Shown here piece after piece: positions 3,509 through 27,877 of a stretch of 64,000 nt of DNA. A program made the translations under genes and the position numbers. Numbering within the stretch: the stretch's first letter is position 1; every line of letters begins with the position of its first letter. Where the stretch lies: positions 413,719 through 477,718 of the forward strand of contig JAQULM010000001.1 of NCBI GenBank assembly GCA_028718605.1, in the 5' to 3' direction. Source of the DNA: Patescibacteria group bacterium (GTDB taxonomy: Bacteria > Patescibacteriota > Patescibacteriia > UBA10025 > JAHIVO01). Below the pieces are notes generated by a model that worked only from the letters and a program-made list of their open reading frames with translations, had not been told where the DNA came from and did no database searches.

Positions 3509-3512
3509 GTGC

Positions 3513-4781: not shown

Positions 4782-4892
4782 ATAGTATAGTATTTATAAT
4801 TTTTAATGAAGCACATACCCAAAGATTGGGGAGTCGATCGTATACGATTCAATAATTCTTTTTCTGCCGATTCAACATTCGGCGCATCAATT

Positions 4893-6011: not shown

Positions 6012-6056
6012 ACCCGCACTTTGTATTTAAATACTATAGCCTTTCAAGATGTACTG

Positions 6057-6728
6057 CTACTCGTGTCCCTGTGACGGCAAGAGGTCATTGATGTTAATAT
6101 TTGTGTTTGTCGAATTTGTATTTGCAGAAGGCGCTGCTGGTGTTATGCCTTCGCTGCCCCAGGTCGCTTCATCGACGAGCCAGGAGTTGCCTTCCTTCAA
6201 AAACTGAAGCTCGATATCCTGGTAGTACGTACCCTTGGCCGTGCCCTGCTCCGCACGCTGAGTGCTCAAAACGACATTTGCTCTCGTACCCGCAATTTCT
6301 ACGTCCTTCGTCGAAACAACCTTGGTGAACACCGAAGCAAACGCAGTTTCGCCGCGAGCAAGCTGCACGCGGATAAAGTCTTCGGAAACACTCTGCATCG
6401 TCGCAGTCATGTACGGCCGCAGGTCCAGAATATTCTGATATTTCGCTTCGCTGGAATAGCTCCCGTATCGTTCAGTAAAAAAATTCGCGAGCCTGACGAG
6501 CGTCAGTTCTTCGGGATCCGCGTTTGTATTTTGCCCCGGGACTGCTGTGTTCACCGTTGAATTCACGACTGGCACGGCACCGTTGGTATTCGTAACGGGG
6601 GCGGTATTATTCGTCGGTGTGTCGCCGTCCCTGAAAAACTGCCACCATACAAAAAATGCAATCACGAGAACGGCGCCCAGAGCGATAAGGATGATAATAA
6701 AATTTTTCCGCTTCTGTTCTTGATCCAT
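6057..6728 (-). CDS. Bitopic membrane protein with an Asn/Thr-rich linker (possibly a VirB8-like NTF2-fold periplasmic domain; speculative)
   Basis: N-terminal TM (FIIILIALGAVLVIAFFVWWQFF), an N/T-rich linker, and a ~130-aa C-terminal globular domain. It sits directly downstream of the VirB4-like gene. Confidence 0.4.
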   Translation of the reverse strand: MDQEQKRKNFIIILIALGAVLVIAFFVWWQFFRDGDTPTNNTAPVTNTNGAVPVVNSTVNTAVPGQNTNADPEELTLVRLANFFTERYGSYSSEAKYQNILDLRPYMTATMQSVSEDFIRVQLARGETAFASVFTKVVSTKDVEIAGTRANVVLSTQRAEQGTAKGTYYQDIELQFLKEGNSWLVDEATWGSEGITPAAPSANTNSTNTNININDLLPSQGHE

Positions 6729-6766
6729 AGGAAACTATTTTAGACAATTTTATACCAAAAGAGATG

Positions 6767-11205: not shown

Positions 11206-12151
11206 GCAAGAGAGTAGTTATTGGTCTCGTTTGAGTAATATATATCTTTTTCTTCTCGATAGCCCACTCGATATCCTGAGGGCATCGATAATGCGCCTCA
11301 ATCCGCTTGCACATGCGGGCGAGCTCGACTATCTGCGAACCAGTGAGGACTTGCGCGTCCTGGAGTTTCCGGGGTAGGCGGACAGTTTTGGTGCCGGCAC
11401 CCGGTTTCCGGATAATCATTTTCTCCTGTGTCGAAACGTTAACGTCAAGAATTACTTCATCTTCTTTGTCGATAATGTACGTATCAGGGGTAATCATGCC
11501 CGATACAATCGCTTCGCCGAGGCCGAATCCTGCTTCGATAACCATTTGTTTCCGGTCCTTCGTGACCGGGTGGGCAGTGAAGCAGACCCCGGATACCTGC
11601 GAATTCACCATTTTCTGCACAACAACTGCGACGCTGACTTTTGTTTTGTGAAGTTTCCTTTCGTACCGATAGAAAATCGCCCGGGGCGTGAATAGGGATG
11701 ACCAGCAGCTTTTAACTGCCCCAAATAGCTTCTGCTGAGTAATAAATAAATATGTTTCGAGCTCGCCTGCCCAGGATGCGATTGAAGAATCCTCTGCGGT
11801 TGCCGAGGACCTGACGGCAACGTATGGGGCGCGGAGTTTTCGGAACATTTGCAAGACTTCTTTCTTGAGGTCACCCGGGAAACGGGCGTCATGAATCAAA
11901 TCGCGTATCTCATGAGAAAAACGGTCAACCGACGTAAGGTCCCGATGATTCAGGCGGTCAAGCCCTGCGTCTATCTCAACACCAATATCGGTCTCCTCGA
12001 GAAAACGTTCAAATGCAGGCGCGAGAATCACAAACCCCGGCGGTACCGGGATCCCACTCTGTACCATTTCGCCAAGATTCGCTCCTTTTCCGCCAGCGAC
12101 ACTTACACTTTTTTTTGATAATTCCGAGAAAGAAGATACGTACGTAAACAT
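11192..12151 (-). CDS. Stand-alone PEP synthase / pyruvate phosphate dikinase N-terminal ATP-grasp (PPDK_N) domain protein
   Basis: Motifs VSVAGGKGANLGEM and VAVRSSATAEDS are the PPDK_N/PEP-synthase ATP-binding signatures. The 319 aa are roughly the ATP-grasp domain alone, with no swivel or substrate domain. Confidence 0.8.
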   Translation of the reverse strand: MFTYVSSFSELSKKSVSVAGGKGANLGEMVQSGIPVPPGFVILAPAFERFLEETDIGVEIDAGLDRLNHRDLTSVDRFSHEIRDLIHDARFPGDLKKEVLQMFRKLRAPYVAVRSSATAEDSSIASWAGELETYLFITQQKLFGAVKSCWSSLFTPRAIFYRYERKLHKTKVSVAVVVQKMVNSQVSGVCFTAHPVTKDRKQMVIEAGFGLGEAIVSGMITPDTYIIDKEDEVILDVNVSTQEKMIIRKPGAGTKTVRLPRKLQDAQVLTGSQIVELARMCKRIEAHYRCPQDIEWAIEKKKIYITQTRPITTLLHGRE

Positions 12152-15357: not shown

Positions 15358-16269
15358 ATGGGAGAAATGCACAATTTCGAAATATCATCCCAGTTTGAAC
15401 ATCGGGAAGGAGAAAAAGAACGGCCCAATCTGACCGTGTACCTCATGCGGCACGGCGAAACTGAAACCGACAAATCGAAACCGAACCGCGGTCTTACCGA
15501 GCATGGCCAGGAACAGGTAAGAGAAAACTTCAATGGCATCATCGACCAACTGATACAAGAAGAAGTGCCAGAATTTCGGGACTTCGACGATCCGGAAAAA
15601 CGTAAAGCTGCTGCCGTACAAGCGTTCTCGAAAGTTGAAATGCACCTCGCGGAATCCGGCACTGACCGCACCCAAGAGCAGGTTTGGCTTGAACGCGGAA
15701 TCCTCATTGACATGGGCGTGCCTCCCGAGGACCTGCATTTGCCGAAGTCAACCTACGAATGGGCAGTAAAGAACGGGAAGATCGAAGCGATGCCCGAAGA
15801 CGGCGGTCCAGGGGTCAAGCGCCGGCTTGCTGGCGTTGGCGGTATGGATAGTGCCAAAGAGTTCAGGAAAAAAATCAGCAACCCTGAATACCAGGCGCAG
15901 ATCGGCGCGACGGACGAAATTATCGCGTGGGCAAAAACGCCGGATGATGAAATCCCGGAAGGCGTTGAGACGAGGAACCAAATGGAAGCCCGCCTGCAAA
16001 GCGACCTCGGCAAAGTAGAGCACGTTGCCAGTAAACGCCTCAACGGCCGCCCGAAACGGACTGTGTATGTTGCGAATAGCCATGCCTCAATACTCACGCT
16101 TGCCGCTTCCTCAGAGTTAAACGCGCCGATTGAACAGGTCGGAGAAATTGAAAACGGGGAAGGCCTCCGCCTCGACTTCTACGGCGAGGGTAAAGCGCAC
16201 ACCGCACAGCCATTTGGAAAAAATACGGAAGCGAAATTTCAGCGACTCAGGGAACAGCCGTCGGCTTAA
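15358..16269 (+). CDS. Histidine phosphatase superfamily protein (phosphoglycerate mutase/SixA-like)
   Basis: N-terminal motif VYLMRHGETE (RHGE with the catalytic His), LTEHGQEQ, and a C-terminal second-His segment VYVANSHASIL. Confidence 0.7.
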   Translation: MGEMHNFEISSQFEHREGEKERPNLTVYLMRHGETETDKSKPNRGLTEHGQEQVRENFNGIIDQLIQEEVPEFRDFDDPEKRKAAAVQAFSKVEMHLAESGTDRTQEQVWLERGILIDMGVPPEDLHLPKSTYEWAVKNGKIEAMPEDGGPGVKRRLAGVGGMDSAKEFRKKISNPEYQAQIGATDEIIAWAKTPDDEIPEGVETRNQMEARLQSDLGKVEHVASKRLNGRPKRTVYVANSHASILTLAASSELNAPIEQVGEIENGEGLRLDFYGEGKAHTAQPFGKNTEAKFQRLREQPSA

Positions 16270-16331: not shown

Positions 16332-17852
16332 CTATTTTCTTATTCGCACCACTCCCTCGTTCCCATCAACCTCAACAATCTGCCCGTCTTTCAGAATTTT
16401 TGTTGCCATGCGCAAGCCGATAATGCCCGGGATGCCGGCTTCACGTGCTAATGTTGCCGGGTGCGAGGTAATGCCCGGCCCGCCGTCGCAAATCAAACCT
16501 GAAGCGATTGACAGGACGTGGGTAAACACCGGCGTTGCCTGGATTGTCGCGATGATGTCTCCCTTCTTTACCTTATGGAACGCGTCCGGATTAATCACAA
16601 TCTTGACCGGCCCGCGCGCGGTGCCGGGAGAAACAGGCGTACCGTACAGTGCCTTTACTTTTCTATCAATTTTAACAAAAAAATCAAAATACTGCTGTGC
16701 CTGTTTTCCCATTAACACGGCTGTCTTCCTGCGGAAGTTATGGAACACGACCAAGCGGATGCGCTCGTTTACGATTGAACTCATGTCGATGCCGTGCACG
16801 AGCATCGGCCGCACTTCCTGCGTAAGCAAATGCCTCGCCTGGCGAATCGATAGCACACCCCGTTTGGCAATCTCGATGAGGATCGGGTCGTATAAATGGA
16901 GCGTCTGGGACACGATCCACTTCCGCAGCTCCTTGTAGTAAATTGCCTCGCGCATTGTTTTGAACAGCCGCTGGTGCTTCGTGTCAATCTTCAGCGTTCG
17001 GTAAATCGCACGGACATCCCGCTCTAGTTGCTGTTCGTCGCGGATCATTTTTTTGAGCGCTGCATGTGGGTCACTGGCGAGAAGTTTTTTAAACCGTACA
17101 ATGAAATCTTCCTGGGATAAAATCGGGTCATCGTAGTCGCGCGTAATCCAGAAAAACCTGCGTACGTGCTTCATAAAAAGCGCTCGCAGGGCTGTGTCTG
17201 CCCGAATTGACTTAAGGACATTTCCGGCGTGGCGCTGCTTGAAAATTGCCCTCCAGCGGGAATTCTGTGCAATGCGCTGGCACACGGCGAGTGCTGCTTT
17301 ACGCTCCTGCCAGTTAATCATCGCGCGCTGTTCGGTGATCAGCCGGTCAATCGCCTTGCCGGCGCGGATCGGGTCTGGCTCACGGGATGCAATATACTCC
17401 CGTAAGTATTGAAAAAAGTAGTTTTCCATCGCCAACACGGGGAAATAGTGGGAATACACCTGCCGGTACCGCTTATCGTACTCCTCGTGCAGCGCCGCCA
17501 GCTTCGCATTGTGCATCGTCTTCAACGCTGCCGGCTTATTGTTTGCGCGCAGGAAGCGGTAGAACGAACGGCCAAAGGCCTTTTGCTTTTTCGCGAGTTT
17601 CATGAACAGCGCCGGGTCGGCGAGAACGCGCTTCATTACTCCCATACCCACGCGTTCATGGTCGTCCTTGTCAAAAAAAGCGTAAAAAACGTTCTCGGTA
17701 AAGAACACGATGCTCTGCTGATACGCATACCCGATCACCTGTTTCATTTCATTGCACACTGTCTCCATGGAGATATAGTTCGGAAACGGACTGACCCGCT
17801 GGCGCTGGGACAGCTGGAACCAGTGCAGTTTTTTATTTAACCGTATGTTCAT
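16332..17852 (-). CDS. PEP-utilizing-enzyme swivel (phospho-His) domain protein with a divergent helical N-terminal domain (RPH/PEP-synthase-like, lacking ATP-grasp)
   Basis: C-terminal GTPVSPGTARGPVKIV...GDIIATIQATPVFTHVLSIASGLICDGGPGITSHPATLAREAGIPGIIG is the PEP-utilizers mobile-domain signature with the catalytic His; the N-terminal ~400 aa is all-helical with no ATP-grasp motifs. Confidence 0.8.
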   Translation of the reverse strand: MNIRLNKKLHWFQLSQRQRVSPFPNYISMETVCNEMKQVIGYAYQQSIVFFTENVFYAFFDKDDHERVGMGVMKRVLADPALFMKLAKKQKAFGRSFYRFLRANNKPAALKTMHNAKLAALHEEYDKRYRQVYSHYFPVLAMENYFFQYLREYIASREPDPIRAGKAIDRLITEQRAMINWQERKAALAVCQRIAQNSRWRAIFKQRHAGNVLKSIRADTALRALFMKHVRRFFWITRDYDDPILSQEDFIVRFKKLLASDPHAALKKMIRDEQQLERDVRAIYRTLKIDTKHQRLFKTMREAIYYKELRKWIVSQTLHLYDPILIEIAKRGVLSIRQARHLLTQEVRPMLVHGIDMSSIVNERIRLVVFHNFRRKTAVLMGKQAQQYFDFFVKIDRKVKALYGTPVSPGTARGPVKIVINPDAFHKVKKGDIIATIQATPVFTHVLSIASGLICDGGPGITSHPATLAREAGIPGIIGLRMATKILKDGQIVEVDGNEGVVRIRK

Positions 17853-18454
17853 AATGCTCTCGTAATGGCACGCCGCATCTGTTTGAAGTTTTTATATAAA
17901 ATCGTGTTTACGCCCATTTTGGAGGGTTCAACCAGGTTTGCCGCTTGATCATCGATGTAAACTATCTCAGATGGCTTTACCCGAAAACGGCGACAAATGT
18001 ACGCGACGGTCTTCTTGCTCGCCTTGGGAAGGTTCAGCGACTGCGTATTGATACTGTCGTCAAAATACTTCTTGAAACCGAGCGCTTTATCAAAATACGC
18101 AAACCACGCCACCAGGTTCTTGCTCAGGATAATGCACGTGTACCCGCGATGGCGCAAGCGAGTGACGTACTGCACGACTGATCTACGAAGTTCCGTATGC
18201 CGCAAGTGCCATGCCCTCATCGCGCGCCAGTCCTGGCGCCACCCGAGTTCTCGAATTGGGCGAATCCAACCCTGGCGTTCGGTGATCTTATTTTCGGCAA
18301 TTAAGTTGAAATACTTCGTATATAAAACGTTAAAAACCGCTTGCCATGGGGTTCCGTGGATTTTCGCGAAATGCCGGCTTGTTTTTTTATGGTCACCGAT
18401 CACGGTAACGCCGTTGAAGTCAAAAATGATTAATTGTACGTGTTTCTTGTTCAT
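17849..18454 (-). CDS. HAD-fold hydrolase-like protein with non-canonical motif I (DxN)
   Basis: LIIFDFNGVTV (motif I with the second Asp replaced by Asn), motif IV-like YIDDQAANL. Its ends overlap both neighbours by 4 nt. Confidence 0.65.
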   Translation of the reverse strand: MNKKHVQLIIFDFNGVTVIGDHKKTSRHFAKIHGTPWQAVFNVLYTKYFNLIAENKITERQGWIRPIRELGWRQDWRAMRAWHLRHTELRRSVVQYVTRLRHRGYTCIILSKNLVAWFAYFDKALGFKKYFDDSINTQSLNLPKASKKTVAYICRRFRVKPSEIVYIDDQAANLVEPSKMGVNTILYKNFKQMRRAITRAL

Positions 18455-19974
18455 AATTTTTTCATTATCCCCCTCGTCGCGTCCACTGCAACGCGACAGC
18501 CTGTTTTAAGAATGGTGACGGCTCTGGGCACCCCGACAATACACGGAACATTGAGCTCCCGCGATACGATTGCCGCATGGCACGTGAGGCCGCCCTCCTC
18601 GGTGATAATCGCCGCAGCCTGGCGCATCGCGGGCAACAGCGTCGGATTGGTCGCATACGAAACGAGGATTTCGCCGCGCTTGAAATCCTGCGCATCAGCA
18701 AGGCTGTTGACGGTACGTGCGGCTCCCCGCGCTGTCCCATTGCATGCAGGCGTCCCCGTGAGCTTCGAACGGTTCCGGCAGGGAGGCATCTGTATATTAT
18801 CACGGATAAATTTTTCAGCAGCGTTGCCGCTCACAATCCACCACGCACCCCGCTGGTACCTGCATATGAACAGCTGGCGGCGTCCGTTGATTTCCTTGAG
18901 ATCGGGCGCGCCCGTCTTGAGCGCTTGTGCAACCTCCTCGTGGGTCATGTACCGCACCTGGTCAACGCTCATATGGAGCCGCCCCGCAATTTCGCGGAAC
19001 AGCTTATGCATATGCCAACACGACTTGAACTGGTGCGCCTTGCGGAACGGCTGGAACCAGTATGCAAACTGGGCGATAGCGGCAAACCGGCGCTCCTGCG
19101 GGGAAAAATGTAGGTCTTTCATAATCCGCTGTTGCGTTCGGGCGAGCACCGCGGGTTCCGCTTTTTTCGTTTCATATTCCGCGCGGACATTCCCGCGGCG
19201 CAGAATATCCTGCACGAACATGATGAAATCCGCAATGTCCATCACCGGCCCTTCCCAATTGTGGAACAGCCAATGGTATGCGCGCTGTTGGCGCCGTAGC
19301 TCGCGGTACATGCGCGGATACTGCTTGCTGATTATCTCCTGAACGGCTGGGGCTGCAGTGGCCCTGAACACGCGGCTGAGCTTGGGCTGTTTGCTGACTG
19401 CATAACTTAATTTCAGGATATCGAGCGTCTGGCGGTAAAAGATCGTTGGCTTGGCCGGGACGGATAGGGCATGGAAGTATTCCGCCGCTTTTTTTGGCGC
19501 ACGGCGCTTCAGTATCTCCTTGATCGCGCCACTGAAATACGCTCGCTCGCCGAACTCAAAATTAAAAACGATATTCCCGTACGCGTAGCACGGCTCATCG
19601 AGCACGACGAAACGGCTGTAGAGCTTCGCGAGCTGTGCGTTGGCCATGGCACCGAGATCCTGCTTCCATATACGCTGGTAGGTAAATACATTCAACCGCC
19701 TGAGTGACGCCAGCGCGTTCAATTTCGTTTTTTCGACAAACCCCGGCTGGCGGACGGCCAATTGCTGGCAATGGTCTTGGAACCGATGCCAATCCGCGGG
19801 CGCCATAAAGTATTCCTGCACCTTTTCCCGGTTCACCATGCCGATTGGCGCGACCATGCCGACGTACTTCTGGTAATTCTTGCTCCAGAGCCGCACGAGG
19901 ATGAACTGGGGAAACACGCTGGTCTGCATGTCCCGCGCAATATACTCAAATTTCTTTCGTGTATGGTTTGGCAT
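18451..19974 (-). CDS. PEP-utilizing-enzyme swivel domain protein (paralog 2)
   Basis: C-terminal GTPACNGTARGAARTV...GEILVSYATNPTLLPAMRQAAAIITEEGGLTCHAAIVSRELNVPCIVG. I chose the start at Met21 (MPNHTRK) to avoid overlapping the upstream gene; the first ATG in the frame is at 20034. Confidence 0.75.
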   Translation of the reverse strand: MPNHTRKKFEYIARDMQTSVFPQFILVRLWSKNYQKYVGMVAPIGMVNREKVQEYFMAPADWHRFQDHCQQLAVRQPGFVEKTKLNALASLRRLNVFTYQRIWKQDLGAMANAQLAKLYSRFVVLDEPCYAYGNIVFNFEFGERAYFSGAIKEILKRRAPKKAAEYFHALSVPAKPTIFYRQTLDILKLSYAVSKQPKLSRVFRATAAPAVQEIISKQYPRMYRELRRQQRAYHWLFHNWEGPVMDIADFIMFVQDILRRGNVRAEYETKKAEPAVLARTQQRIMKDLHFSPQERRFAAIAQFAYWFQPFRKAHQFKSCWHMHKLFREIAGRLHMSVDQVRYMTHEEVAQALKTGAPDLKEINGRRQLFICRYQRGAWWIVSGNAAEKFIRDNIQMPPCRNRSKLTGTPACNGTARGAARTVNSLADAQDFKRGEILVSYATNPTLLPAMRQAAAIITEEGGLTCHAAIVSRELNVPCIVGVPRAVTILKTGCRVAVDATRGIMKKL

Positions 19975-19978
19975 ACCG

Positions 19979-21511
19979 TTATTGTACGCGTTTAATAATG
20001 CCTTTTCCCGCATCAACGGAAACCTTATCATCATCTTTTAAAACCTTGGTGGCAATTTTCGTGCCAATGACGCACGGCACTCCCAATTCCCGTGAAACAA
20101 TTGCCGCATGGGAGGTAATGCCGCCGGCGTCCGTAATGATCGCCCGCGCCCTGCGCATTGCGGGGACCAATTCAGGCGATGTTGCCGGTGAAACAATGAT
20201 ATCGCCAGCATTAAATTTCGGCAAATCACTCGCGTTCCGCAATATTTTTACGTGGCCTTCTGCCTTTCCGGCGCAGGCGCACATGCCGTGGAGCTCCTGG
20301 ACCGAGCCCTTCACCTGTAGCGAACGGTTAATCTCGGAAATAATTGCACGTGCTTCCCCGAACGGCAGCACCTTCCAGCGCATACCGTCAATCCACACAA
20401 CGGTTTGCTGCGCACGTCTGCGTAGATACGGGCGTGACAATTTTCCGGCGATCGCCGTGTACATTTCCCAGTGCGATAACGTTTGCGCTTCGGCAAGTGA
20501 AATGCCGAGGCGTTTGCTGATTTCAACAACCAACTCATGTACGAGGTACTGGCACCGCACCATCAGCTTTTTGCGCCAGCGTTTCAGGCCGGCAAGCTCG
20601 CGCAACAGTACGAAAAGTGTGCGGTGCTCCGCGTCGACTCCTGCGCGCTTGAACCACACGACCTGCTGCTGTCGAATGGCCTTATTGGCGGCGATTAAAT
20701 CACGCCGCTTGCGCTGCAGCAATGTTTTGGATAACTTCAGGTGCCGGAAAAAATCGTCAATAGTTTCGGCAAACGGCTTTTTCGGGCCGCTATACCCGTA
20801 CGACAAATATGAAAATCGGCCATGGTACCTCTCCAGCGTGAGTAATAATTCCGGATTCCTGGCCTGGCAATACCGCACGCACGCATCAACCGATTTCCTC
20901 GACGATGCAGGTACGACCTGCCGGAATTTCAAAGCAATCTCAATAAGCTTAATTTCCGTCGTACGGTTCTCGTTCACGCCCGTCGGCGTGGTGAGCACGG
21001 TAAAAATCGTGCCGACGTCATTCGCATACCGTGGCGGCACCGTGCCCTTCAAATACTCGTACAGCGGGCCTGACAGCAGCGGCTCCTCGAATTCCAGTAC
21101 TGTGCCGTACGTGCTCGCCGACAGCGTACGGAGCGCCAGCCCAGTCCAGCGTTCATATATGCGCAACAGTTCTGCGTCGGTCAATGCGGACAGGTCAGCG
21201 CCGGCAACCTGCTGCGAAAAACGTAAAATCAAACGCGCCTGCTGCCGCGTCGTGTGCCACATCCAGCGGAGAAATCGCGGATCCTTCCGCAGCTTCTGGA
21301 GTATCGCCTTTCCTGGCGTGGCAAAGCCGCCCTTCACCACGCATTCGCGGACAGACCGGCCGTGGTACACAAGTGCAATCGGGCCTGCGTGCGCGCCAAT
21401 CCGATTGCACGCCTGCGCCGCGCCGATGTAATACAATGACATGGGGAAATTCGCAGCCGGTTCCTCGTCGAGCTGCACCCACTGCCGATTTTGCCGCCGA
21501 ACAATCGCCAT
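19979..21511 (-). CDS. PEP-utilizing-enzyme swivel domain protein (paralog 3)
   Basis: C-terminal GMCACAGKAEGHVKIL...GDIIVSPATSPELVPAMRRARAIITDAGGITSHAAIVSRELGVPCVIG. Confidence 0.8.
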   Translation of the reverse strand: MAIVRRQNRQWVQLDEEPAANFPMSLYYIGAAQACNRIGAHAGPIALVYHGRSVRECVVKGGFATPGKAILQKLRKDPRFLRWMWHTTRQQARLILRFSQQVAGADLSALTDAELLRIYERWTGLALRTLSASTYGTVLEFEEPLLSGPLYEYLKGTVPPRYANDVGTIFTVLTTPTGVNENRTTEIKLIEIALKFRQVVPASSRKSVDACVRYCQARNPELLLTLERYHGRFSYLSYGYSGPKKPFAETIDDFFRHLKLSKTLLQRKRRDLIAANKAIRQQQVVWFKRAGVDAEHRTLFVLLRELAGLKRWRKKLMVRCQYLVHELVVEISKRLGISLAEAQTLSHWEMYTAIAGKLSRPYLRRRAQQTVVWIDGMRWKVLPFGEARAIISEINRSLQVKGSVQELHGMCACAGKAEGHVKILRNASDLPKFNAGDIIVSPATSPELVPAMRRARAIITDAGGITSHAAIVSRELGVPCVIGTKIATKVLKDDDKVSVDAGKGIIKRVQ

Positions 21512-21516
21512 ACTCC

Positions 21517-22107
21517 CTACGAATACTTTTTTAACAGCAACCTCCCTGCCTCGCGGATACCCTCAATGCGGTAAAAAATAAACTTGTCCTGGGTAGTGAT
21601 GCCCCACTCAAGTATAACATTTTTAAGCGCCAACTTCCGCACTGCCTGCAGTACTGTCGTACGCTGCCCCGGCGTAAGCGTTGCGCGGTCGCCAACGGTG
21701 CTGGCGAGGCGGAGCTTTGCGTCATAATAGTACGCGGCATCTACCTTGCCGTGCCGCATCAGGTCAACAACAGCGCCCTTCACTGTTTCGATAACGGCAC
21801 GGTGCTTTTCAATGAGCAAGGTGCCCGCGCGCTTCCACTTCCACGACGGGTAGACAACGAAAAGTGCCCTGCCACCAAGCTGCTTTTGGAATTTATCGAT
21901 CGTCGAAGGCACCTGGTTTTTTGGCAGCCAATTCGTATAGACATTTTTCCATGCGCCCTTGGTAACGGCAACGGTACGGATCGTCCAACCAACGTAGTCT
22001 TTGATACCGAAAAACTTCTCCAAGTCGCGCGACGTACGGACAAATTCCCACTCCGGGTGGGGCAGTTTTGCGCGGTCAATGAGTTGGAGGCCATGGAGGA
22101 TCGTCAT
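21517..22107 (-). CDS. Hypothetical protein in the swivel-protein operon
   Basis: 196-aa ORF tightly packed between paralog 3 and the second HAD gene; no recognisable motif. Confidence 0.4.
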   Translation of the reverse strand: MTILHGLQLIDRAKLPHPEWEFVRTSRDLEKFFGIKDYVGWTIRTVAVTKGAWKNVYTNWLPKNQVPSTIDKFQKQLGGRALFVVYPSWKWKRAGTLLIEKHRAVIETVKGAVVDLMRHGKVDAAYYYDAKLRLASTVGDRATLTPGQRTTVLQAVRKLALKNVILEWGITTQDKFIFYRIEGIREAGRLLLKKYS

Positions 22108-22727
22108 ATGAGCTGCCGTAATTCGTCAATCTCCCGAAATACGTAGTCCGGTTTTTCTTTCAGCAATTCCTGCTCGCGCTTATAGCCCCACGTGACAGCG
22201 CCAGTCAGGATTCCCTCCCGCTTCCCAACTTTAACTTCATGCGCGGTGTCGCCGATAAATATCGTTTCCTGGCGGTTCAGATGGTGCCGCTGGATCGCAC
22301 TTTCAATAACCCGAGCTTTGTCATGAATATCATAAACGATCTCATTGAAAACGCGCTCGAGGCCAAACTTTTTCAATTCCGGAAAAATCGTTTCTTTGAT
22401 GTCGCCACTGATGACGATCATGTATTTTCCGGCGTGGTGCAATGCACGAATACTATCGATAATGCCGGGAAAAGGGTTCGCAGGGGGCCGGCGCAGTATT
22501 TCCCGATGAAAAATCGCCGACTCCTCCTCGAGCGTCAGGTTGGGCAGGTATTTTTGGTAAAAAAGGATATACGGCTGGTCCCATGCTTCACGAAATTCCT
22601 CGAGTGAAATCCGCGGGGCTTTGTAGGTATCAAAAACAACCATCGCGACATCATAGACGTTCTGGATGTTGTCGCTGATGACCCCCGCCCAGTCGAAAAT
22701 GATATTCTGAACCTTCGGTACGCTCAT
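22104..22727 (-). CDS. HAD-fold hydrolase-like protein with non-canonical motif I (DxA)
   Basis: NIIFDWAGVISD (second Asp replaced by Ala), motif IV-like IFIGDTAHEV; 4-nt overlaps with both neighbours. Confidence 0.65.
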   Translation of the reverse strand: MSVPKVQNIIFDWAGVISDNIQNVYDVAMVVFDTYKAPRISLEEFREAWDQPYILFYQKYLPNLTLEEESAIFHREILRRPPANPFPGIIDSIRALHHAGKYMIVISGDIKETIFPELKKFGLERVFNEIVYDIHDKARVIESAIQRHHLNRQETIFIGDTAHEVKVGKREGILTGAVTWGYKREQELLKEKPDYVFREIDELRQLI

Positions 22728-24373
22728 AATTTTTTCACGATCCCTTTTGTCGCATCGACCTCCACCGTATCACCGTCCTGGAAGACCTTTGTCGCAATTT
22801 TCGTGCCGATGACGCAGGGAATTTTTAACTCACGGGACACAATCGCCGCATGCGACGTGACGCCTCCCTGCTCCGTGACAATCGCCGCGGCTTTTTTCAT
22901 TGCCGGCACGATGTCGGGGTCAGTAGCGATTGAAACAAGAATGTCCCCTTTCTGCATCTTTGCCATGTCTTTTGGCCGTATGATAATTCGTACAACGCCG
23001 GTTGCCCTGCCGACGCAACCGACCTGGCCGGAAATTTCACGCACGCCGGTAGCTACGGAACGAGTTGCAGTCCGCGCGAGGCGTTGCGCCTTGGCACCAC
23101 TAAAAACCCCCTCGGAGCCACGTTCGTAATAATACACGGCAAGCGCTGGGCGCTTGCGCAACGCTGCACGGTTCAACCTCCCGCGCATGAGTGCGGCGTG
23201 CACCTCGTCGCGCAGCATGAAACGCACCTCTCGTAATGAAAGCTTCAGCCGCCGCGCGATTTCCTGCACCACCGGCTGCATCCGGTAAATGGCGTAGATC
23301 TGGGCATAGCGCCGGTAAATCTTGGTTACCATGAAATCGCCCCACTCGCTGAACACCGAGCGCCACGGATTGCGGATTTTGAGCTTCCGCACCAGCGCGG
23401 CTTGTTTTATTTTTTGGTTGTTAAATTCCGTCCGTATCCGCGCCAGCTCGCGGCTGGGATTCACGCCCGTGCCGATCAGCTTTACGAGCTCTTTGAGGTA
23501 ATGCTCGAATGTATACACCCCTTCCTTGCCGATCCACATGAACTTCACGTAGAAATACCGGCGGTAGTGCTGCTCGATGCGCTTCAGGATCGATGGCTTG
23601 ATAATATCTTTAATTCGTTCCGCGCGCTCTTCGAGCAGCCGTTCGTACTCCGGCGTGTGGGTTTTGAAGCCGTACGGCGCCGCGTCCTGCTCAAGGAATG
23701 ATTTATACAAATTGCGGAACACGCGTTGCTGTTTCCGGTCGCGGCAGATGCCTGCGGCCAGTCCCAGGAATTGCTCCCGTTCAATCTGTATCAGCGATTT
23801 TAAGCGCGGCTGCGTTAAAATGACGAGGCACTCATTGACTTTTTTTTCAGGGACGAGCCTACGCAAATACCCCTTGAGCCGGTTTGTCAGGTTGTCGTGG
23901 AACATGTCGGCTGCAACGGGAATCCAGCCCCACTGGTAGTACTGCGTGTGCACTGCGTCATGGCGCCGGTACCAATCCCACAGCTGGCGGTTGGAAAGGC
24001 GCTCGAGGTGGTCTTCGGGAATTGTGCCTGCGAACCTACGCAGTGTATCAGACCATCGGACGATGCCGCGGTTCACCTGACGGGCGAAGGACGGATTGCT
24101 GACGATGCGCTCGGCAATATGCTCACCAACGCGGTTCGAATCCTCCTCGCCATAATAAAACCACAGGTGGTACCCCCGGAACACCGCGAGCAATTTTTTA
24201 TACCGGGCACCAGCCGGGTGTGCAAATTCGTTGACAAAGCAGGACTGCCAGATCTGCGCGAAGAACGGGTCCATGTCCGGGATGTCCTCGGCAAGTATCC
24301 ACGGGTCTGTATCCGCAAGGTAATTGAGCCGCTTTTTTGCCATAGTATTAGCGTAAGTATACCTATTTTTCAA
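22724..24373 (-). CDS. PEP-utilizing-enzyme swivel domain protein (paralog 4)
   Basis: C-terminal GQVGCVGRATGVVRII...GDILVSIATDPDIVPAMKKAAAIVTEQGGVTSHAAIVSRELKIPCVIG; N-terminus MAKKRLNYLADTDPWILAEDIPDMDPFFAQIW. Confidence 0.8.
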   Translation of the reverse strand: MKNRYTYANTMAKKRLNYLADTDPWILAEDIPDMDPFFAQIWQSCFVNEFAHPAGARYKKLLAVFRGYHLWFYYGEEDSNRVGEHIAERIVSNPSFARQVNRGIVRWSDTLRRFAGTIPEDHLERLSNRQLWDWYRRHDAVHTQYYQWGWIPVAADMFHDNLTNRLKGYLRRLVPEKKVNECLVILTQPRLKSLIQIEREQFLGLAAGICRDRKQQRVFRNLYKSFLEQDAAPYGFKTHTPEYERLLEERAERIKDIIKPSILKRIEQHYRRYFYVKFMWIGKEGVYTFEHYLKELVKLIGTGVNPSRELARIRTEFNNQKIKQAALVRKLKIRNPWRSVFSEWGDFMVTKIYRRYAQIYAIYRMQPVVQEIARRLKLSLREVRFMLRDEVHAALMRGRLNRAALRKRPALAVYYYERGSEGVFSGAKAQRLARTATRSVATGVREISGQVGCVGRATGVVRIIIRPKDMAKMQKGDILVSIATDPDIVPAMKKAAAIVTEQGGVTSHAAIVSRELKIPCVIGTKIATKVFQDGDTVEVDATKGIVKKL

Positions 24374-25115: not shown

Positions 25116-25382
25116 TTAAAACCTCCTGTAAACTTTAAAAGGATTCTGTGAAGCAATATGCTCGCCAACGCGGTTTGAATCCTCGTGGCCATAATAAAAC
25201 CACAGGTGATACCCACGGAATATCGATACCAACTTTTGATACCGAACGCCTGACGGTTTAATAAACTCATTCACGAAGCAGGACTGCCAGACCTGCGCAA
25301 AAAACGGGTCCATATCCGGGATGTCCTCGGCAAGCATCCACGGGTCTGTATCATGCAGGTATTTCAATGGCTTTTGAGGCAT
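25116..25382 (-). pseudogene. Truncated duplicate of the 5' end of swivel paralog 4 (gene fragment)
   Basis: The translation MPQKPLKYLHDTDPWMLAEDIPDMDPFFAQVWQSCFVNEF...YHLWFYYGHEDSNRVGEHIA aligns with residues ~10-95 of 22724..24373, and nt 25140..25382 are ~85% identical to 24110..24373. The ORF ends after 88 codons. Confidence 0.7.
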
Positions 25383-25463: not shown

Positions 25464-26993
25464 TTACTTAATCCTGCGGACGATCCCCTCATTGGCATTC
25501 ACCTCAACCCGATCGCCGTCTTTGAATATGTCGGTCGCCACCTTTGTACCAATAACGCAGGGGATATCAAACTCGCGGGACACAACAGCGGCATGGCTGC
25601 AGATGCCACCCTCATTGGTAACAATCGCCCCTGCTTTCCTGCACGCGGTAATAATCTCTGGCCTGGTCTGGCCCGCGACGAGGATGTCACCCTTTTTCAT
25701 CTCGTCAATTTGTGGGGCGAGCGGCTTGTCGTACGTGATAACCTTCACGCGACCGACTGTCCTGCCCGGCGAACCAATTTCCCCATGCACCTCGCCGGTT
25801 CTTTCAACGCGCGAGTGCTCGCGGACGTACCGAACCAAGTTGCGGGCTTTCAAGCCGGTGTATAGTTCCAGCTTGAAATTGTGCAGCCAGAGTACGTACA
25901 GCGTTTTCCGTTTGCGGAGATCGGCGGCTGGCAATTGCTTACCGTGGATGAGGCAATCAACAATCTCTGTGGTAAGGCAGAACTGGGAGAGCTCCGGATT
26001 GATCTTCGACCGGCGCGCAGCCTCGTGGTACAGGCGCATGCCAAAGTGCATTCCCTGTGTCCAGCAAAACCGGATGCAGAAGCGGGTGTACGCGTACTCC
26101 TGGAGCATCGCAACCAACCGTCGGTAGGTTGGACTCACCCGGTACTGCGCCAGTAAACGTTTATTTTCACGAATTACCGTGCGCTGGCGCGACTCCAGCT
26201 CATGGAGTTTGGATTTCAACTCACGTGGCTGCTGGTGGAGCATGGTTTGGAGATTTCGGACACAGTCGAGCACGGTGTACGGCTGGAGGTTGCTGTCCGC
26301 GGTGAGCCATTCGTACTGCTGCTGGTGCACTGCAATTTTCTGGAATAGGCCCGGGTACTTCTTTTTAATCACCGCTGCGGCGCGCTGCGGACCAATGTCT
26401 TTTAATTTTTTAATAAAAGCACCATGCTTTTGCGCCTCCAGCACAATTCGTATCCACTCAATTTCTTCTTGCTCGAATTCGAACCGCTTCACCGGCCGGA
26501 CGAGCGAGCGGAGCACATCCTCACGCTTCACGGTGTTTGAAACCTTCCCGGCCAAGTACTGGCGCAGCTCCTGCTCGACGCCGATCGTGTACCAGTTGAC
26601 CGAGGTCTGGAACCGGCCGTAGACATTTATCAACGTTTTCAAGTATCGCTGCGCGAACAAACCAAGCTGACGAGTCGGTACGTTTGCGACGTCCAACTTT
26701 TTCAATTCGCTAATCTCACGGTACATCCGCCGCAGGACGCGCCACGTTTCAACGAGATCGGCCCTGACGAACGGTGGATTGGTCAGGTTGCGGTAGCCGA
26801 CTGTCGCGATGCGTGGCAGGTCCGCCTCGTCCATGAACGCCTGGATCTTGTTCCGCTCAGAAAGAAAAATGAAGTCGCGCGACCCGAAGCCGTGGATCTT
26901 TTGGTTCCACAGAGTATTGCCCCAGGCAGCGATCTCCGTGCGGAGCATGTAGTTTCGTACCTCGAACATCCGTTTGTACCGTTGTGCTGCCAT
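25464..26993 (-). CDS. PEP-utilizing-enzyme swivel domain protein (paralog 5)
   Basis: C-terminal GEIGSPGRTVGRVKVI...GDILVAGQTRPEIITACRKAGAIVTNEGGICSHAAVVSREFDIPCVIG. Confidence 0.8.
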   Translation of the reverse strand: MAAQRYKRMFEVRNYMLRTEIAAWGNTLWNQKIHGFGSRDFIFLSERNKIQAFMDEADLPRIATVGYRNLTNPPFVRADLVETWRVLRRMYREISELKKLDVANVPTRQLGLFAQRYLKTLINVYGRFQTSVNWYTIGVEQELRQYLAGKVSNTVKREDVLRSLVRPVKRFEFEQEEIEWIRIVLEAQKHGAFIKKLKDIGPQRAAAVIKKKYPGLFQKIAVHQQQYEWLTADSNLQPYTVLDCVRNLQTMLHQQPRELKSKLHELESRQRTVIRENKRLLAQYRVSPTYRRLVAMLQEYAYTRFCIRFCWTQGMHFGMRLYHEAARRSKINPELSQFCLTTEIVDCLIHGKQLPAADLRKRKTLYVLWLHNFKLELYTGLKARNLVRYVREHSRVERTGEVHGEIGSPGRTVGRVKVITYDKPLAPQIDEMKKGDILVAGQTRPEIITACRKAGAIVTNEGGICSHAAVVSREFDIPCVIGTKVATDIFKDGDRVEVNANEGIVRRIK

Positions 26994-27877
26994 TACGGAG
27001 CCTCCTCATACCGATGCGCCTCTATGTACGCCTGGCTTAGACGTTTAAGTTCCTCCATATCGATGCGCCACTTCAAGCCCTTCAGGCGCTCGATATCTCC
27101 GAACCGAGGCACGACGGTTTTCTCACCCTTCTGGTCAATCGTGACGTCCAGCTCGACGAACTCAACGGGTTTGAACGATCCGCCGATCTCCTCTACGCCC
27201 TGGAACCCCCGGCGCTCCTCGCCCGTCTCGGGGTCCTCGATAATCAGACACTTACTCAGGAAGCAGGTGAGGGGCGTATTGTGAGATACGTCCACGAGCA
27301 CTGCCCGAGAACCGCTCTTGAGGTGATCAGCCATCCGTATCTGCGTATCGACAAAGTGCCCGATATTACTCGCTGCCTCTTCCGTATACACGGGATCCTG
27401 CAGCGCCTTGTTGCACAGGAAATCCTCGGCTTCCTGCATAGCCCGCAGTTGCACGTCTGGCGCCAACGAATCAAACTGCGGGTAGTGTTCCTCGAGGTAC
27501 TGCTTACCATACTTTACCCACCCGCCCTCCGGGAAACTCCGTATTGAAGAGTAATCAAGCTCTTTCCGCTGGCGTGGGTCGAGCTTGATGAACGTTTCAT
27601 CGGAGGCACTCCCCACAATGTTATCGCGCGTCCGGTCTGCGCGCTGCTGTCCGCTCGCATACCCCTTGAGCCCAGACTGCTCTGTGGCAGTGAACGAACG
27701 ACCGTAGTCCTTTGTGGACTGTTCACCGCGAGGGCTCAGCAAACCGTACATCTGACCTGGTTCTTTATCACCATGCCTTCCGAGCCTGATTATCAGCTGC
27801 ACGTCACGACCACGCTCCCTCGCCTCGCGATCAGGAGAGCTATTCATCCCGTATTCTATTGGTCCTCGTTCAACCAT
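26993..27877 (-). CDS. Histidine phosphatase superfamily protein
   Basis: LIIRLGRHGDKEPGQ...LSPRGEQ (RHG motif plus the LSxxGxxQ motif), a later VLVDVSHNTPL second-His segment; a 1-nt TAATG overlap with paralog 5. Confidence 0.6.
   Translation of the reverse strand: MVERGPIEYGMNSSPDREARERGRDVQLIIRLGRHGDKEPGQMYGLLSPRGEQSTKDYGRSFTATEQSGLKGYASGQQRADRTRDNIVGSASDETFIKLDPRQRKELDYSSIRSFPEGGWVKYGKQYLEEHYPQFDSLAPDVQLRAMQEAEDFLCNKALQDPVYTEEAASNIGHFVDTQIRMADHLKSGSRAVLVDVSHNTPLTCFLSKCLIIEDPETGEERRGFQGVEEIGGSFKPVEFVELDVTIDQKGEKTVVPRFGDIERLKGLKWRIDMEELKRLSQAYIEAHRYEEAP

Follow-up and report, generated by a model that had tools for sequence, protein, structure and literature searches.

Two HAD-fold genes which lack the second aspartate of motif I (Asp+2) lie close together among genes for phosphohistidine swivel proteins, and the question arises as to whether this loss and this setting reflect a common function. 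They are carried by a stretch of 64,000 nucleotides (the window, meaning the whole stretch analyzed) from a Patescibacteria genome.

The phosphotransfer island in the window

The phosphotransfer island in which the two genes had been said to be embedded is a real one: in addition to a single PPDK_N ATP-grasp gene standing alone, the window carries six paralogs that have a PF00391 swivel domain at the C-terminus, all with an intact catalytic His, and RHG histidine-phosphatase-like genes. The features are as follows:

11192..12151, minus strand: stand-alone PPDK_N ATP-grasp subunit, 319 aa (PF01326, 339 bits)
15358..16269, plus strand: RHG-motif protein (LMRHGETE), histidine-phosphatase-superfamily-like, with a PF00300 N-terminal motif
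16332..17852, minus strand: swivel paralog, partner of HAD1, 506 aa; RIF-binding-like N-domain plus swivel (PF00391), divergent His motif GITSHPATLAREAGIPG
17849..18454, minus strand: HAD1, 201 aa; C1-capped HAD-IA, YihX/sEH-N-like; N-terminus MNKKHVQLIIFDFNGV
18407..18421, minus strand: HAD1 motif I, D12-F-N14-G-V (codons read), aligned to D-L-G-N-V of YihX
18451..20034, minus strand: swivel paralog, ORF of 527 aa; canonical motif GGLTCHAAIVSRE; stop codon overlaps the HAD1 start
19979..21511, minus strand: swivel paralog, 510 aa; motif GGITSHAAIVSRE
21517..22107, minus strand: p196, conserved hypothetical protein, 196 aa; ATGA overlap with HAD2; syntenic in loci L008 and L009
22104..22727, minus strand: HAD2, 207 aa; C1-capped HAD-IA, PGP/PpaX-like; N-terminus MSVPKVQNIIFDWAGV
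22680..22694, minus strand: HAD2 motif I, D12-W-A14-G-V (codons read), aligned to FDLDGT of 2ah5, 3mc1 and 2yy6
22724..24373, minus strand: swivel paralog, 549 aa; motif GGVTSHAAIVSRE; stop codon overlaps the HAD2 start
25116..25382, minus strand: remnant of 88 aa, likely a pseudogene fragment; identity to the N-terminus of the 549-aa swivel paralog, 64%
25464..26993, minus strand: swivel paralog, 509 aa; motif GGICSHAAVVSRE
26993..27877, minus strand: second RHG-motif protein (LGRHGDKE, read from the sequence)
28181..29746, minus strand: swivel paralog, 521 aa; motif GGLTCHTAIVARE

The junctions of HAD1 with its neighbors are ATGA overlaps, the ATG of the 506-aa paralog overlapping the HAD1 stop codon. 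Since the 18451..20034 ORF overlaps its upstream gene by 56 nt, the true start of this paralog is probably an internal Met.

The NCBIfam matches of the PPDK_N subunit are the N-terminal thirds of PEP-synthase and RPH, the single-chain rifampin phosphotransferase, which is also the nearest relative of the swivel proteins with a solved structure (residues 652-865 of RPH 5fbs match the 506-aa paralog). To our knowledge, a HAD is not part of any described two-component dikinase or RPH system. Split dikinases showing a similar domain logic, HpeHI, CreHI, and PpsAB, have been established experimentally (PMC12167813) and share with the window a separate ATP-grasp subunit working with a subunit composed of a RIF-binding-like domain and a His swivel; the catalytic motif GGxT(S/C)HAAIVxR is common to the window system and to HpeHI, CreHI, PpsAB, and RPH. 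By analogy with HpeI (PMC12167813), the HpeI-like PPDK_N subunit is presumed to be the ATP-dependent charger of all the swivel domains in the window. The best explanation is that this CPR genome has a small-molecule dikinase system of the RPH/HpeHI type that is split into subunits and has several paralogs, and it differs from the known dikinases in that a single ATP-grasp gene serves 3-10 tandem paralogs in island-type loci, the N-domains are only ~21% identical, and one paralog combines a diverged His motif with a HAD partner or fusion. No aromatic-catabolism genes were found near the island.

The 15358..16269 protein exceeds the PF00300 cut-off as a whole (25.2 vs. 21.7 bits), with ~30 residues covered and no stretch passing alone, and has a weak NCBIfam match to SixA; the 26993..27877 protein matched no Pfam or NCBIfam family. 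Genes comparable to the latter, with faint His_Phos_1 matches, are present in loci L002 and L005.

Extent and meaning of the missing aspartate

Both ORFs are indeed HAD-fold genes without Asp+2, in which the nucleophile Asp12 and motifs II-IV are kept. The Pfam models PF00702 (47 bits) and PF13419 (40 bits) match HAD1, and PF13419 (71 bits) matches HAD2, all above the cut-offs. Direct reading gave GAC (18419-18421) for D12 and AAC (18413-18415) for N14 in HAD1, and placed D12 at 22692-22694 and A14 (GCG) at 22686-22688 in HAD2. The assignment of motif I is correct: D12 lies at the end of strand beta-1 in the AlphaFold (AF2) models of HAD1 (pLDDT 95.5) and HAD2 (96.1), and the profile alignments place it on the nucleophile of E. 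coli YihX (IFDLGNV) and of 2ah5, 3mc1, 3sd7, and 2yy6 (FDLDGT), with N14 and A14 falling on the +2 position of all five. No further DxD(G/T) is present near the N-terminus of either protein. Beyond motif I, the family alignments show the residues S111-K112-N113, LPK144AS, and YID168D169QxxN to be intact in HAD1, and S107, HDK137, and G159-D160-T-x-H163-E164 in HAD2.

The possibility that the substitution might be sporadic was not borne out, since Asp is present at +2 in 0/42 HAD1 relatives (Asn in 19, Tyr in 20, Thr in 3) and 0/69 HAD2 relatives (Ser in 54, Ala in 11, His in 2, Thr and Gln in one each). It is likewise absent across 30 further genome loci. In an exhaustive search of representatives, the core family (matches of at least 150 bits) carried N, Y, H, T, S, A, F, or G at +2, and never D or E; the second tier, corresponding to the wider YihX-like clade, carried Gly in 72 matches and Asp in only 4.

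HAD1 belongs to this YihX-like HAD-IA clade. The best Foldseek matches of its model are YihX (8pne/8pno; E 3e-12, TM ~0.8) and the sEH-N domain, which retains DxD; YihX is also a top PDB sequence match. Like YihX, HAD1 has a four-helix C1 cap and a DDxxxN motif IV and lacks Asp+2, but the two are only ~18% identical, the +2 residue is Gly in YihX and N/Y/H/T in HAD1, and HAD1 scores 34 bits on the YihX equivalog model, as against a cut-off of 295. Unlike YihX, HAD1 shows an invariant S-K-N after strand 2 and an invariant YTKYFN cap motif. Mutases such as beta-PGM retain Asp+2. The rule that a HAD without Asp+2 is not an ordinary phosphatase, on which the preliminary description had relied, is too strong, since most of the YihX-like clade lacks this residue and yet E. 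coli YihX is an active glucose-1-phosphate phosphatase with a kcat of ~10 per second on alpha-Glc-1-P (PMC4251788).

The altered motif I might also reflect a change of chemistry, HAD2 being a phosphonatase-like C-P hydrolase and the DxY relatives of HAD1 resembling 2-haloacid dehalogenases, or the two proteins might be inactive pseudo-enzymes or scaffolds; all this we consider very improbable. PhnX has the same pattern as HAD2 in motif I (DWAGT, with Trp at +1 and Ala at +2) as well as a C1 cap, and matches it in profile searches (E ~1e-7 to 1e-9), but HAD2 is 60 residues shorter, the cap segment bearing the Schiff-base Lys53 and His56 of PhnX is an insertion missing from it, and its score on the phosphonatase model TIGR01422 is 16.6 bits vs. 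a cut-off of 220. L-2-haloacid dehalogenases, which have Tyr at +2, occur among the weak structural and sequence matches, but the Mg-binding DD of motif IV is kept in HAD1, which scores 23.5 bits on the dehalogenase model vs. a cut-off of 125.4. In both families, D12, the S/T, the K, and the acidic motif IV show little or no variation, which would be unexpected of pseudo-enzymes.

Different histories of the two HAD families

The two genes had been treated as alike, which does not agree with their distribution. In 29/30 genome loci, the HAD1-family gene is part of an array of split RPH/HpeHI-type dikinase subunits and is linked or fused to swivel proteins, a trait not shared by YihX; within 10 kb, these loci contain 1-10 swivel ORFs, mostly within 150 bp, while the remaining locus (L034) has no swivel gene. 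HAD1 also lies within the swivel array in all seven loci with a HAD1-family gene obtained by exact protein look-up, two of which (L001 and L002) are one region from two records. The minimal module, swivel-HAD1-PPDK_N, is found in L003; at least one swivel array, that of L133, lacks a HAD1 gene within 8 kb. The gene directly downstream of HAD1 is usually a swivel paralog with the His motif T(S/T)HPATLARE (at least 17 loci), a type present in only 2/131 other swivel domains and also the one to which HAD1 is joined in the fusions of L011, L012, and L033. Fusions occur in both orders, HAD1-N-domain-swivel (P0115, L011, L012) and N-domain-swivel-HAD1 (P0117, P0118, P0157, L029, L037), and a 308-aa fusion of HAD1 with a bare swivel domain (P0116/P0260) was found on at least 20 contigs; the catalytic D and H are intact in all of them. 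One lineage (L001, L002, L013) differs in that ribH/ribE, and not the special paralog, are coupled to HAD1. Near-obligate co-location, a dedicated divergent paralog, and recurrent fusions thus give strong comparative support to a swivel-linked role of HAD1, whereas the phospho-acceptor or regulatory role put forward in the preliminary description is a hypothesis.

HAD2, on the other hand, is a member of a HAD-IA family found across the Patescibacteria, in which D-W-(S/A)-G is fixed and whose genes often lie beside those of thymidylate and other nucleotide metabolism. No swivel gene was detected in any of the 41 HAD2-family loci of at least 8 kb, and the conserved neighbors are thymidylate kinase and dCMP deaminase (11 loci each), ThyA (6), and DHFR (5). 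Since the wider DWSG family shows no association with swivel genes, the loss of Asp+2 in HAD2 is older than the island and has no connection with it. Synteny inside swivel arrays is limited to close relatives (51-57% identity) and includes p196, which is translationally coupled to HAD2 by the ATGA overlap; p196 has no Pfam or NCBIfam match, and its 58 homologs, none with an assigned name, are all from Patescibacteria. Of the HAD2 family, only a DWAG subclade has been recruited into the island, jointly with this partner.

Among solved structures, HAD2 is nearest in both fold and sequence to HAD-IA phosphatases and pyrophosphatases of the PGP/PpaX/BT2127 type (2ah5, 2hsz, 3qu2), and Foldseek ranks 2ah5, 2hsz, and the BT2127 pyrophosphatase best. 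HAD2 has their core, cap topology, and GDxxx(D/E) motif IV, but motif I is FDLDGT in 2ah5, 3mc1, 3sd7, and 2yy6, and BT2127 has Asp13 at +2, where the HAD2 family has S/A14; this family is further distinguished by an invariant W13, by an H163 in motif IV that is nearly invariant, and by the cap motif WEQPYMxFYNKY. HAD2 scores 62.7 bits on the PpaX model vs. a cut-off of 218.

A proposed phosphate exchange with the swivel histidine

Our preferred explanation, taken as a whole and held tentatively at somewhat below an even chance, is that HAD1 exchanges phosphate directly with a phospho-His swivel domain, while HAD2 is probably a small-molecule phosphohydrolase. The chemical steps, which we infer from the computed fold, motifs, family-wide substitution, synteny, fusions, and paralog-specific His motif, might be the following. 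The single PPDK_N subunit would charge the catalytic His of the six swivel proteins, in each of which the swivel domain at the C-terminus is conserved and the substrate-binding N-domain has diversified. HAD1, in this explanation a catalytically competent, Mg-dependent, aspartyl-phosphate-forming enzyme, would be dedicated to the 506-aa paralog encoded directly downstream (His motif T(S/T)HPATLARE) and would offer the swivel domain a third place to dock; the phosphoryl group would pass from the swivel His to Asp12 and would then be discharged to water or to an acceptor under the HAD1 cap. A phosphoramidate donor would make a general acid unnecessary, and the variable +2 residue (N/Y/H/T/S/A) may tune the lifetime of the acyl-phosphate rather than catalyze turnover. 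The substrate of HAD2 would have a good leaving group, as in a nucleotide or a pyrophosphate-type compound.

Response-regulator receivers and the P-domains of P-type ATPases likewise undergo Mg-dependent Asp phosphorylation on a Rossmann-like fold without an Asp+2 acid/base (D57-W-N59 in CheY, DKTGT in P-type ATPases), and in receivers the donor is phospho-His and the phosphoryl group is made more or less stable by the residue at D+2. This likeness is an analogy, homology not being claimed beyond the known HAD/CheY structural resemblance, and a swivel His of the dikinase type would here take the place of a histidine kinase or HPt domain as donor. LHPP, a metazoan enzyme of the C2-capped NagD clade, has the motif I D-I-S-G-V and shares the nucleophile Asp with the D-W-S/A-G-V of the HAD2 family; HAD1 and HAD2 are C1-capped, and no specific sequence relationship with LHPP is detectable. 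The +2 residue of this HAD is Ser, and the enzyme hydrolyses phospho-His, phospho-Lys, and PPi (PMC11277029); since it cleaves both P-N bonds and PPi, it provides a precedent for substrates needing no general acid.

The cap counts against direct exchange. It is a complete C1 cap with Y45, K47, Y48, and N50 invariant in HAD1, in HADs usually a sign of a small-molecule substrate and an occluded active site; the same argument has been raised against LHPP acting on proteins (PMC11277029). Hydrolytic discharge of the phospho-His would amount to a futile ATPase unless it is regulated, the RHG histidine-phosphatase-like genes could be the phospho-His phosphatases of the island instead of HAD1, and the characterized two-component dikinases function without any HAD (PMC12167813). 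The L133 array without HAD1, the L034 locus without a swivel gene, and the lineage with ribH/ribE coupling also speak against direct exchange.

It is quite possible, although we would give it only about one chance in three, that both HADs are ordinary small-molecule phosphatases. HAD1 would then act on the phosphorylated product of the neighboring dikinase paralog, or on a later intermediate, without ever contacting the swivel His; Asp+2 would be dispensable because the substrate, an aryl, enol, or acyl phosphate or an anhydride, has a good leaving group. This would resemble the dephosphorylation step which follows phosphorylation of the CreHI/HpeHI type. The known two-component dikinases phosphorylate phenolic small molecules, and YihX, the nearest characterized relative of HAD1, is a plain phosphatase without Asp+2; the capped active site and the coupling to riboflavin genes in L001 and L013 are also consistent with this explanation. 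The fusions and synteny would be equally expected here, as consecutive pathway enzymes may often be fused. However, the islands contain no obvious enzyme (oxidase, carboxylase) acting between kinase and phosphatase, so that the pair would form a futile cycle; the 308-aa fusion has no small-molecule-binding N-domain with which to make a product; and the diverged His motif beside HAD1 points to altered docking rather than to an altered small-molecule substrate.

That HAD1 is instead the acceptor domain of a "HAD kinase" seems unlikely to us. Phosphate would run from the ATP-grasp subunit via the swivel His and Asp12 to an anionic acceptor under the cap (phosphate, phosphonate, or carboxylate), giving a diphosphate or acyl-phosphate, or in the reverse direction high-energy phosphates could be harvested to make ATP. 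The fusion and synteny evidence is shared with direct exchange, the missing general base fits an acceptor that is already deprotonated, and K112 (beside the motif II Ser) and cap K47, both invariant in the family alignment, could bind a second anionic group. On the other hand, a candidate acceptor is absent, the known HAD phosphotransferases (beta-PGM, PMM) retain Asp+2, and we know of no earlier case in which a swivel His charges a HAD. HpeH alone does carry out reversible phosphotransfer between substrates (PMC12167813), which speaks for such a kinase. As regards the preferred explanation, direct exchange, the linkage between HAD1 and the swivel proteins hints at a phosphate hand-off of a kind not previously described.

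Fold, motif I and relatives of the two HAD proteins

The long minus-strand operon of this Patescibacteria (CPR) genome houses two HAD-fold genes, here called HAD1 and HAD2:

17849-18454, minus strand: HAD1, 201 aa, N-terminus MNKKHVQLIIFDFNGV
22104-22727, minus strand: HAD2, 207 aa, N-terminus MSVPKVQNIIFDWAGV

HAD1 exceeds the Pfam cut-offs of PF00702 and PF13419 and HAD2 that of PF13419, and the existing annotation of their families goes no further than "HAD hydrolase-like". Their predicted folds are very confident (AF2 pLDDT of 95.5 for HAD1 and 96.1 for HAD2) and show a Rossmannoid core and, right behind motif I, an inserted C1 cap made up of helices only; Foldseek matched both models to many HADs with a probability of 1.00. 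Motifs II-IV are intact, the residues S111, K144 and D168-D169 of HAD1 (43 homologs) and S107, K137, D160 and E164 of HAD2 (70 homologs) being invariant or nearly so. By their nucleophile strand and motifs II-IV, both genes belong to the HAD superfamily, and a pseudo-enzyme reading is unlikely.

The absence of the second Asp of motif I from both proteins, noticed in the preliminary description, was borne out by profile alignment and the AF2 models, the residue at this position (Asp+2) being N14 in HAD1 and A14 in HAD2. The motif was not mis-assigned: D12 lies at the end of the first strand (E8-12 in HAD1, E8-11 in HAD2), and in profile alignments to solved structures it coincides with the nucleophile Asp, and residue 14 with the acid/base, with the IFDLGNV of Escherichia coli YihX aligned to HAD1 at motif I and the FDLDGT of 2ah5, 3mc1, 3sd7 and 2yy6 to HAD2. 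Nor is the substitution sporadic, since Asp occurs at +2 in none of 42 HAD1 and none of 69 HAD2 homologs. The HAD1 family has Asn (19), Tyr (20) or Thr (3) there (alignment of 43 sequences), and the HAD2 family Ser (54), Ala (11), His (2), Thr (1) or Gln (1) (alignment of 70 sequences); 30 more genome loci agree. In an exhaustive search of 1.84 billion representatives, of which the best 150 matches were considered, the core HAD1 family (at least 150 bits) added His, Ser, Ala, Phe and Gly, with Asp or Glu still at zero, and the wider clade (110-135 bits, among the same 150 matches) carried Gly at +2 in 72 cases and Asp in 4. The one DxGGV locus of that wider tier that was looked up (P0144) lies on a 1.1-kb contig and gave no information on its gene context.

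The solved structures nearest to HAD1, in sequence as in fold, are those of two HAD-IA variant 3 members: YihX, and the phosphatase domain at the N-terminus of soluble epoxide hydrolase. HAD1 shares the fold and the DDxxxNL motif with YihX, but stays below the NCBIfam cut-offs, with 26.3 against 29.4 bits for the HAD-IA model TIGR01509 and 34 against 295 for the YihX equivalog NF006991: it is related to the YihX clade and is not an equivalog. L-2-haloacid dehalogenases lack the Mg-binding DD. The possibility that the DxY relatives of HAD1 are such dehalogenases was rejected as unlikely, in view of the score obtained with TIGR01428 (23.5 against 125.4 bits) and the YIDDQ conserved in HAD1. The NagD clade is characterized by a C2 cap. 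LHPP belongs to this clade (PMC11277029), to which neither HAD belongs; both models carry the C1 cap.

The missing Asp+2 had been taken as a sign that these proteins could be something other than ordinary phosphatases. This argument goes too far, since YihX has Gly at +2 and yet hydrolyses alpha-glucose-1-phosphate, at about 10 per second (PMC4251788). LHPP, which has Ser at +2, hydrolyses phospho-His, phospho-Lys and PPi (PMC11277029), and phosphonatase, with DWAGT as motif I, is another precedent without Asp+2. Because its nearest solved relative YihX and most of the wider clade also lack the Asp, its absence from HAD1 is less remarkable alone: it is a trait of the wider HAD1 clade, common to the enterobacterial YihX, and compatible with ordinary phosphatase activity given a suitable substrate. 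HADs without Asp+2 are an already known kind, and no literature on the missing acid/base of YihX or on the structures 8pne and 8pno was found. Even when read conservatively, these data correct annotation by motif: the absence of Asp+2, which is probably ancestral in the YihX-like clade, does not alone make a protein a non-phosphatase.

The putative split dikinase array and its surroundings

The HAD genes stand in an island of phosphotransfer genes, of which the main features and some neighbours are as follows:

620-1966, minus strand: RadA/Sms-like protein (Zn ribbon, KaiC/RecA-like ATPase, Lon_C/ChlI C-terminal domain)
11192-12151, minus strand: stand-alone PPDK_N ATP-grasp, 319 aa (PF01326, 339 bits)
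16332-17852, minus strand: 506-aa swivel paralog, downstream of HAD1
25116-25382, minus strand: 88-aa ORF with 64% identity to the N-terminal end of the 549-aa swivel paralog, probably what is left of a seventh paralog after decay
33255-39503, minus strand: giant ORF, 2082 aa, downstream of the island
39529-50298, minus strand: giant ORF, 3589 aa, downstream of the island

Six paralogs of roughly 510-550 aa carry a C-terminal PF00391 swivel (phospho-His) domain in which the catalytic His is kept within a T(S/C)H motif; they are about 21% identical in their N-domains and about 48% in their swivel domains. Their C-terminal halves match rifampin phosphotransferase (RPH; 5fbs residues 652-865) and the NCBIfam models for RPH and PEP-synthase-like proteins, a match limited to the last ~215 residues, the first ~290 having no detectable match. 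The island also contains two RHG-motif histidine-phosphatase-like genes. In the two-component small-molecule dikinases HpeHI, CreHI and PpsAB, which have been characterised by experiment, one subunit is the ATP-grasp and the other combines a rifampin-binding-like domain with a swivel (PMC12167813). The island likewise has a separate ATP-grasp subunit and partners with a C-terminal His swivel; here the partner has been multiplied into an array, for which there is only one ATP-grasp gene. That the two HADs are embedded in this island, as previously described, was confirmed by ATGA stop/start overlaps at all four HAD1/HAD2 junctions, and the HAD genes are therefore part of the operon rather than just neighbours.

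The 527-aa ORF at 18451-20034 overlaps the upstream gene (19979-21511) by 56 nt; its true start is probably an internal Met about 20 codons in (MPNHTRKKF...), which would place it 4 nt behind the upstream stop codon. Two other genomes contain short or bare swivel ORFs, one of 107 aa just upstream of PPDK_N (L004) and one of 45 aa (L005).

Type-IV-secretion-like genes border the island (2030-8668 in the window), including a TraG/VirB4-type ATPase (6767-8668), two T4SS-pilin-domain proteins and an SLT transglycosylase. Genes for TrwB/TraG-type ATPases, PrgI and TraC-like proteins border swivel arrays in several other genomes (L001 14667-16624; L003 3629-5533; L004 1-409; L005 1-1447), and the recurrence of these flanks suggests a conserved larger neighbourhood. 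At L130 (2693-7285), and also at L131, there is a diversity-generating-retroelement-like pair, consisting of a bAvd-like protein and an RVT_1 reverse transcriptase, which at L130 precedes the array's first swivel paralog by about 1 kb. The RadA/Sms-like gene is an ordinary housekeeping gene with no relation to the HAD and swivel genes.

The HAD2 family

The closest solved relatives of HAD2 are HAD-IA phosphatases of the PGP/PpaX/BT2127 type, and those aligned carry FDLDGT at motif I. HAD2 scores 62.7 against 218 bits for PpaX and 49.9 against 225 for the best PGP model (NF009695), and shows DWAG where the PpaX/phosphoglycolate phosphatase class calls for DxD. Its D-W-A-G-V does match the D-W-A-G-T of the phosphonatase PhnX (sequence checked against 1rql). 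The PhnX segment KPMGLLKIDH, with the Schiff-base Lys53 and His56, falls however in an insertion which HAD2 lacks, and the TIGR01422 score is 16.6 against 220 bits: since the Lys53 segment is missing, HAD2 was rejected as a phosphonatase despite the PhnX-like motif, and this reading is unlikely.

The preliminary description had treated the two HADs alike, whereas the HAD2 family at large has no link with swivel proteins: no swivel ORF was found near the wider family at any of 41 loci of at least 8 kb. The family is large, with 366 confirmed matches in a metagenome scan, nearly all D-W-S-G-V, a share biased by the scan pattern and with which an unbiased homolog search agrees. Several genes recur around it: thymidylate kinase follows directly downstream in 11 loci, dCMP deaminase lies upstream in 11, and thymidylate synthase is present in 6 and DHFR in 5, along with a possibly NUDIX-like gene (11 loci; recognized by eye only, the representative having no Pfam match). 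Only the closest relatives of the HAD2 in the window (51-57% identity, DWAG) are syntenic inside swivel arrays. Because the wider family lives outside these arrays, the loss of Asp+2 from HAD2 came before its entry into the island and has nothing to do with it. Members of the DW(S/A)G family occur throughout the CPR, and the enzyme is likely connected with the metabolism of thymidylate and nucleotides.

In the wider DWSG family, the HAD gene is often flanked by dCMP deaminase on one side and thymidylate kinase on the other, and ThyA and DHFR are close by (L050-L129). The neighbours of a DWSG relative at L006 (8001-9814) are a HAD with the canonical FDIDGV, a NUDIX protein, and hydrolases of the DHH and HD types. 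These neighbourhoods suggest a CPR-specific nucleotide phosphohydrolase.

The array-borne DWAG relatives of HAD2 are always followed by a homolog of its 196-aa partner, p196, a conserved family (39-69% identity) with members at the following positions:

21517-22107 of the window, minus strand: p196
8621-9208 of L008: p196 homolog
8612-9199 of L009: p196 homolog
8001-8585 of L133: p196 homolog

The link is not obligate (L133, L134): in one complete genome, of a Nomurabacteria member, a p196 homolog stands behind a swivel gene and has no HAD2 next to it, and family members are also found outside the arrays. No Pfam or NCBIfam match was obtained with p196, and its 58 homologs are all unnamed Patescibacteria proteins, the family being confined to this phylum among the homologs found. 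A miniature ATP-grasp related to PPDK_N seemed plausible by eye and was rejected (hhalign probability 1.9%).

HAD1, its swivel partner and a possible phosphate exchange

Exact protein look-up placed the HAD1-family gene inside a swivel array in all seven loci carrying one, two of which (L001 and L002) are one region in two records; in the most reduced locus (34% identity), the swivel protein, HAD1 and PPDK_N are consecutive. A pattern scan of 185,579 species genomes yielded 30 HAD1-family loci (L010-L039), one of them partial, and 1-10 swivel ORFs were present within 10 kb in 29 of the 30, mostly within 150 bp, as compared with none of 10 weaker, partial matches from other phyla. The MAGs of several HAD1/swivel loci (L015, L019, L022, L024, L029, L041) bear the labels Gammaproteobacteria, Methanosarcinales, Nanoarchaeota or Woesearchaeota, perhaps because CPR contigs were mis-binned, or perhaps because the system is truly shared with DPANN archaea.

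The two proteins also occur fused, either in the order HAD1, N-domain, swivel (L011, L012 and P0115, orthologous to HAD1 plus the 506-aa gene of the window) or in the order N-domain, swivel, HAD1 (L029, L037, P0117, P0118 and P0157). A 308-aa protein consisting of HAD1 and a swivel only, with D12 and the TCH histidine intact, was found on at least 20 contigs from several sources, and tandem HAD1-HAD1 proteins are P0114 and those of L032 and L035.

The canonical swivel motif is GGxT(S/C)HAAIVSRE. In the 506-aa-type paralog directly downstream of HAD1 it has diverged to CDGGxG(I/V)T(S/T)HPATLAREAGIP, a change that the window shares with at least 16 further loci, and the HAD1 fusions carry the diverged type too, including HVATLARE in the 308-aa protein; this type occurs in only 2 of 131 swivel domains not adjacent to HAD1. 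The idea that HAD1, like the ATP-grasp, is a partner common to all the paralogs was accordingly revised: the pairing is specific to the HPATLARE-type paralog. By analogy with RPH and HpeHI, the residues beside the phospho-His would form the surface docking into partner active sites. The co-occurrence of a paralog-specific motif change with HAD1 thus points to a HAD1-specific docking event.

In one lineage (L001, L002 and L013; ~6960-8624), the translational coupling of HAD1 is with riboflavin synthase (Lum_binding) and lumazine synthase (DMRL_synthase) rather than with an HPATLARE paralog, and a Carb_kinase (NAD(P)HX dehydratase-like) gene lies ahead of the arrays in L003 and L004, with a flavokinase nearby in L003. 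Such neighbours might reflect a connection with the salvage of cofactors.

What the computations demonstrate is the fold and the motifs, the substitution throughout each family, the synteny, the fusions and a His motif specific to one paralog. As for mechanism, we tentatively favour a direct exchange of phosphate between the swivel His and Asp12 of HAD1, which is plausible though short of probable. As in HpeHI and RPH, the ATP-grasp subunit would use ATP to charge the histidines of the swivel domains, and the HPATLARE swivel would then dock on HAD1 and swap the phosphoryl group with Asp12. No general acid would be needed because the donor would be a phosphoramidate; the variable +2 residue might set the stability of the acyl-phosphate, and the phosphate would finally be discharged to water or to a cap-bound acceptor. 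The main rival, which we regard as possible and only somewhat less likely, is that HAD1 merely hydrolyses a small-molecule product of the neighbouring paralog: its cap is full, with invariant Y45, K47, Y48 and N50, as would suit such a substrate, whereas the fusion of HAD1 with a bare swivel and the diverged His motif of the adjacent swivel argue for direct exchange.

In response regulators, the D+2 residue sets the lifetime of the acyl-phosphate. A more elaborate form of direct exchange, which is improbable in its entirety, would make HAD1, a capped HAD, a receiver-like phospho-acceptor in a previously undescribed chain leading from the ATP-grasp via the HPATLARE swivel His to Asp12. The phosphoryl group would go on to an acceptor, small and anionic, or stay on HAD1 as a tunable phosphate sink or switch; HAD1 would then be a terminal dikinase station in which the +2 residue (N/Y/H/T) times the acyl-phosphate.

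Textbooks present both HAD enzymes and PEP-synthase-type dikinases as phosphotransfer machines. Full-text literature searches (swivel domain with HAD; CPR with PEP-utilising enzyme) gave nothing relevant on a link between them, and within the literature that could be searched no description came up of HAD-swivel coupling or fusion, or of split dikinase arrays with many paralogs in Patescibacteria; the finding would be categorically new only if transfer from His to the Asp of a HAD were shown. If direct exchange does take place, HAD1 would provide the swivel domain with a docking station of a third kind, and its family would be a natural test bed for the contribution of Asp+2 to aspartyl-phosphate chemistry. 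The pair would also help in finding out what is done by the large swivel arrays, unannotated as they are, that many Patescibacteria genomes conserve.
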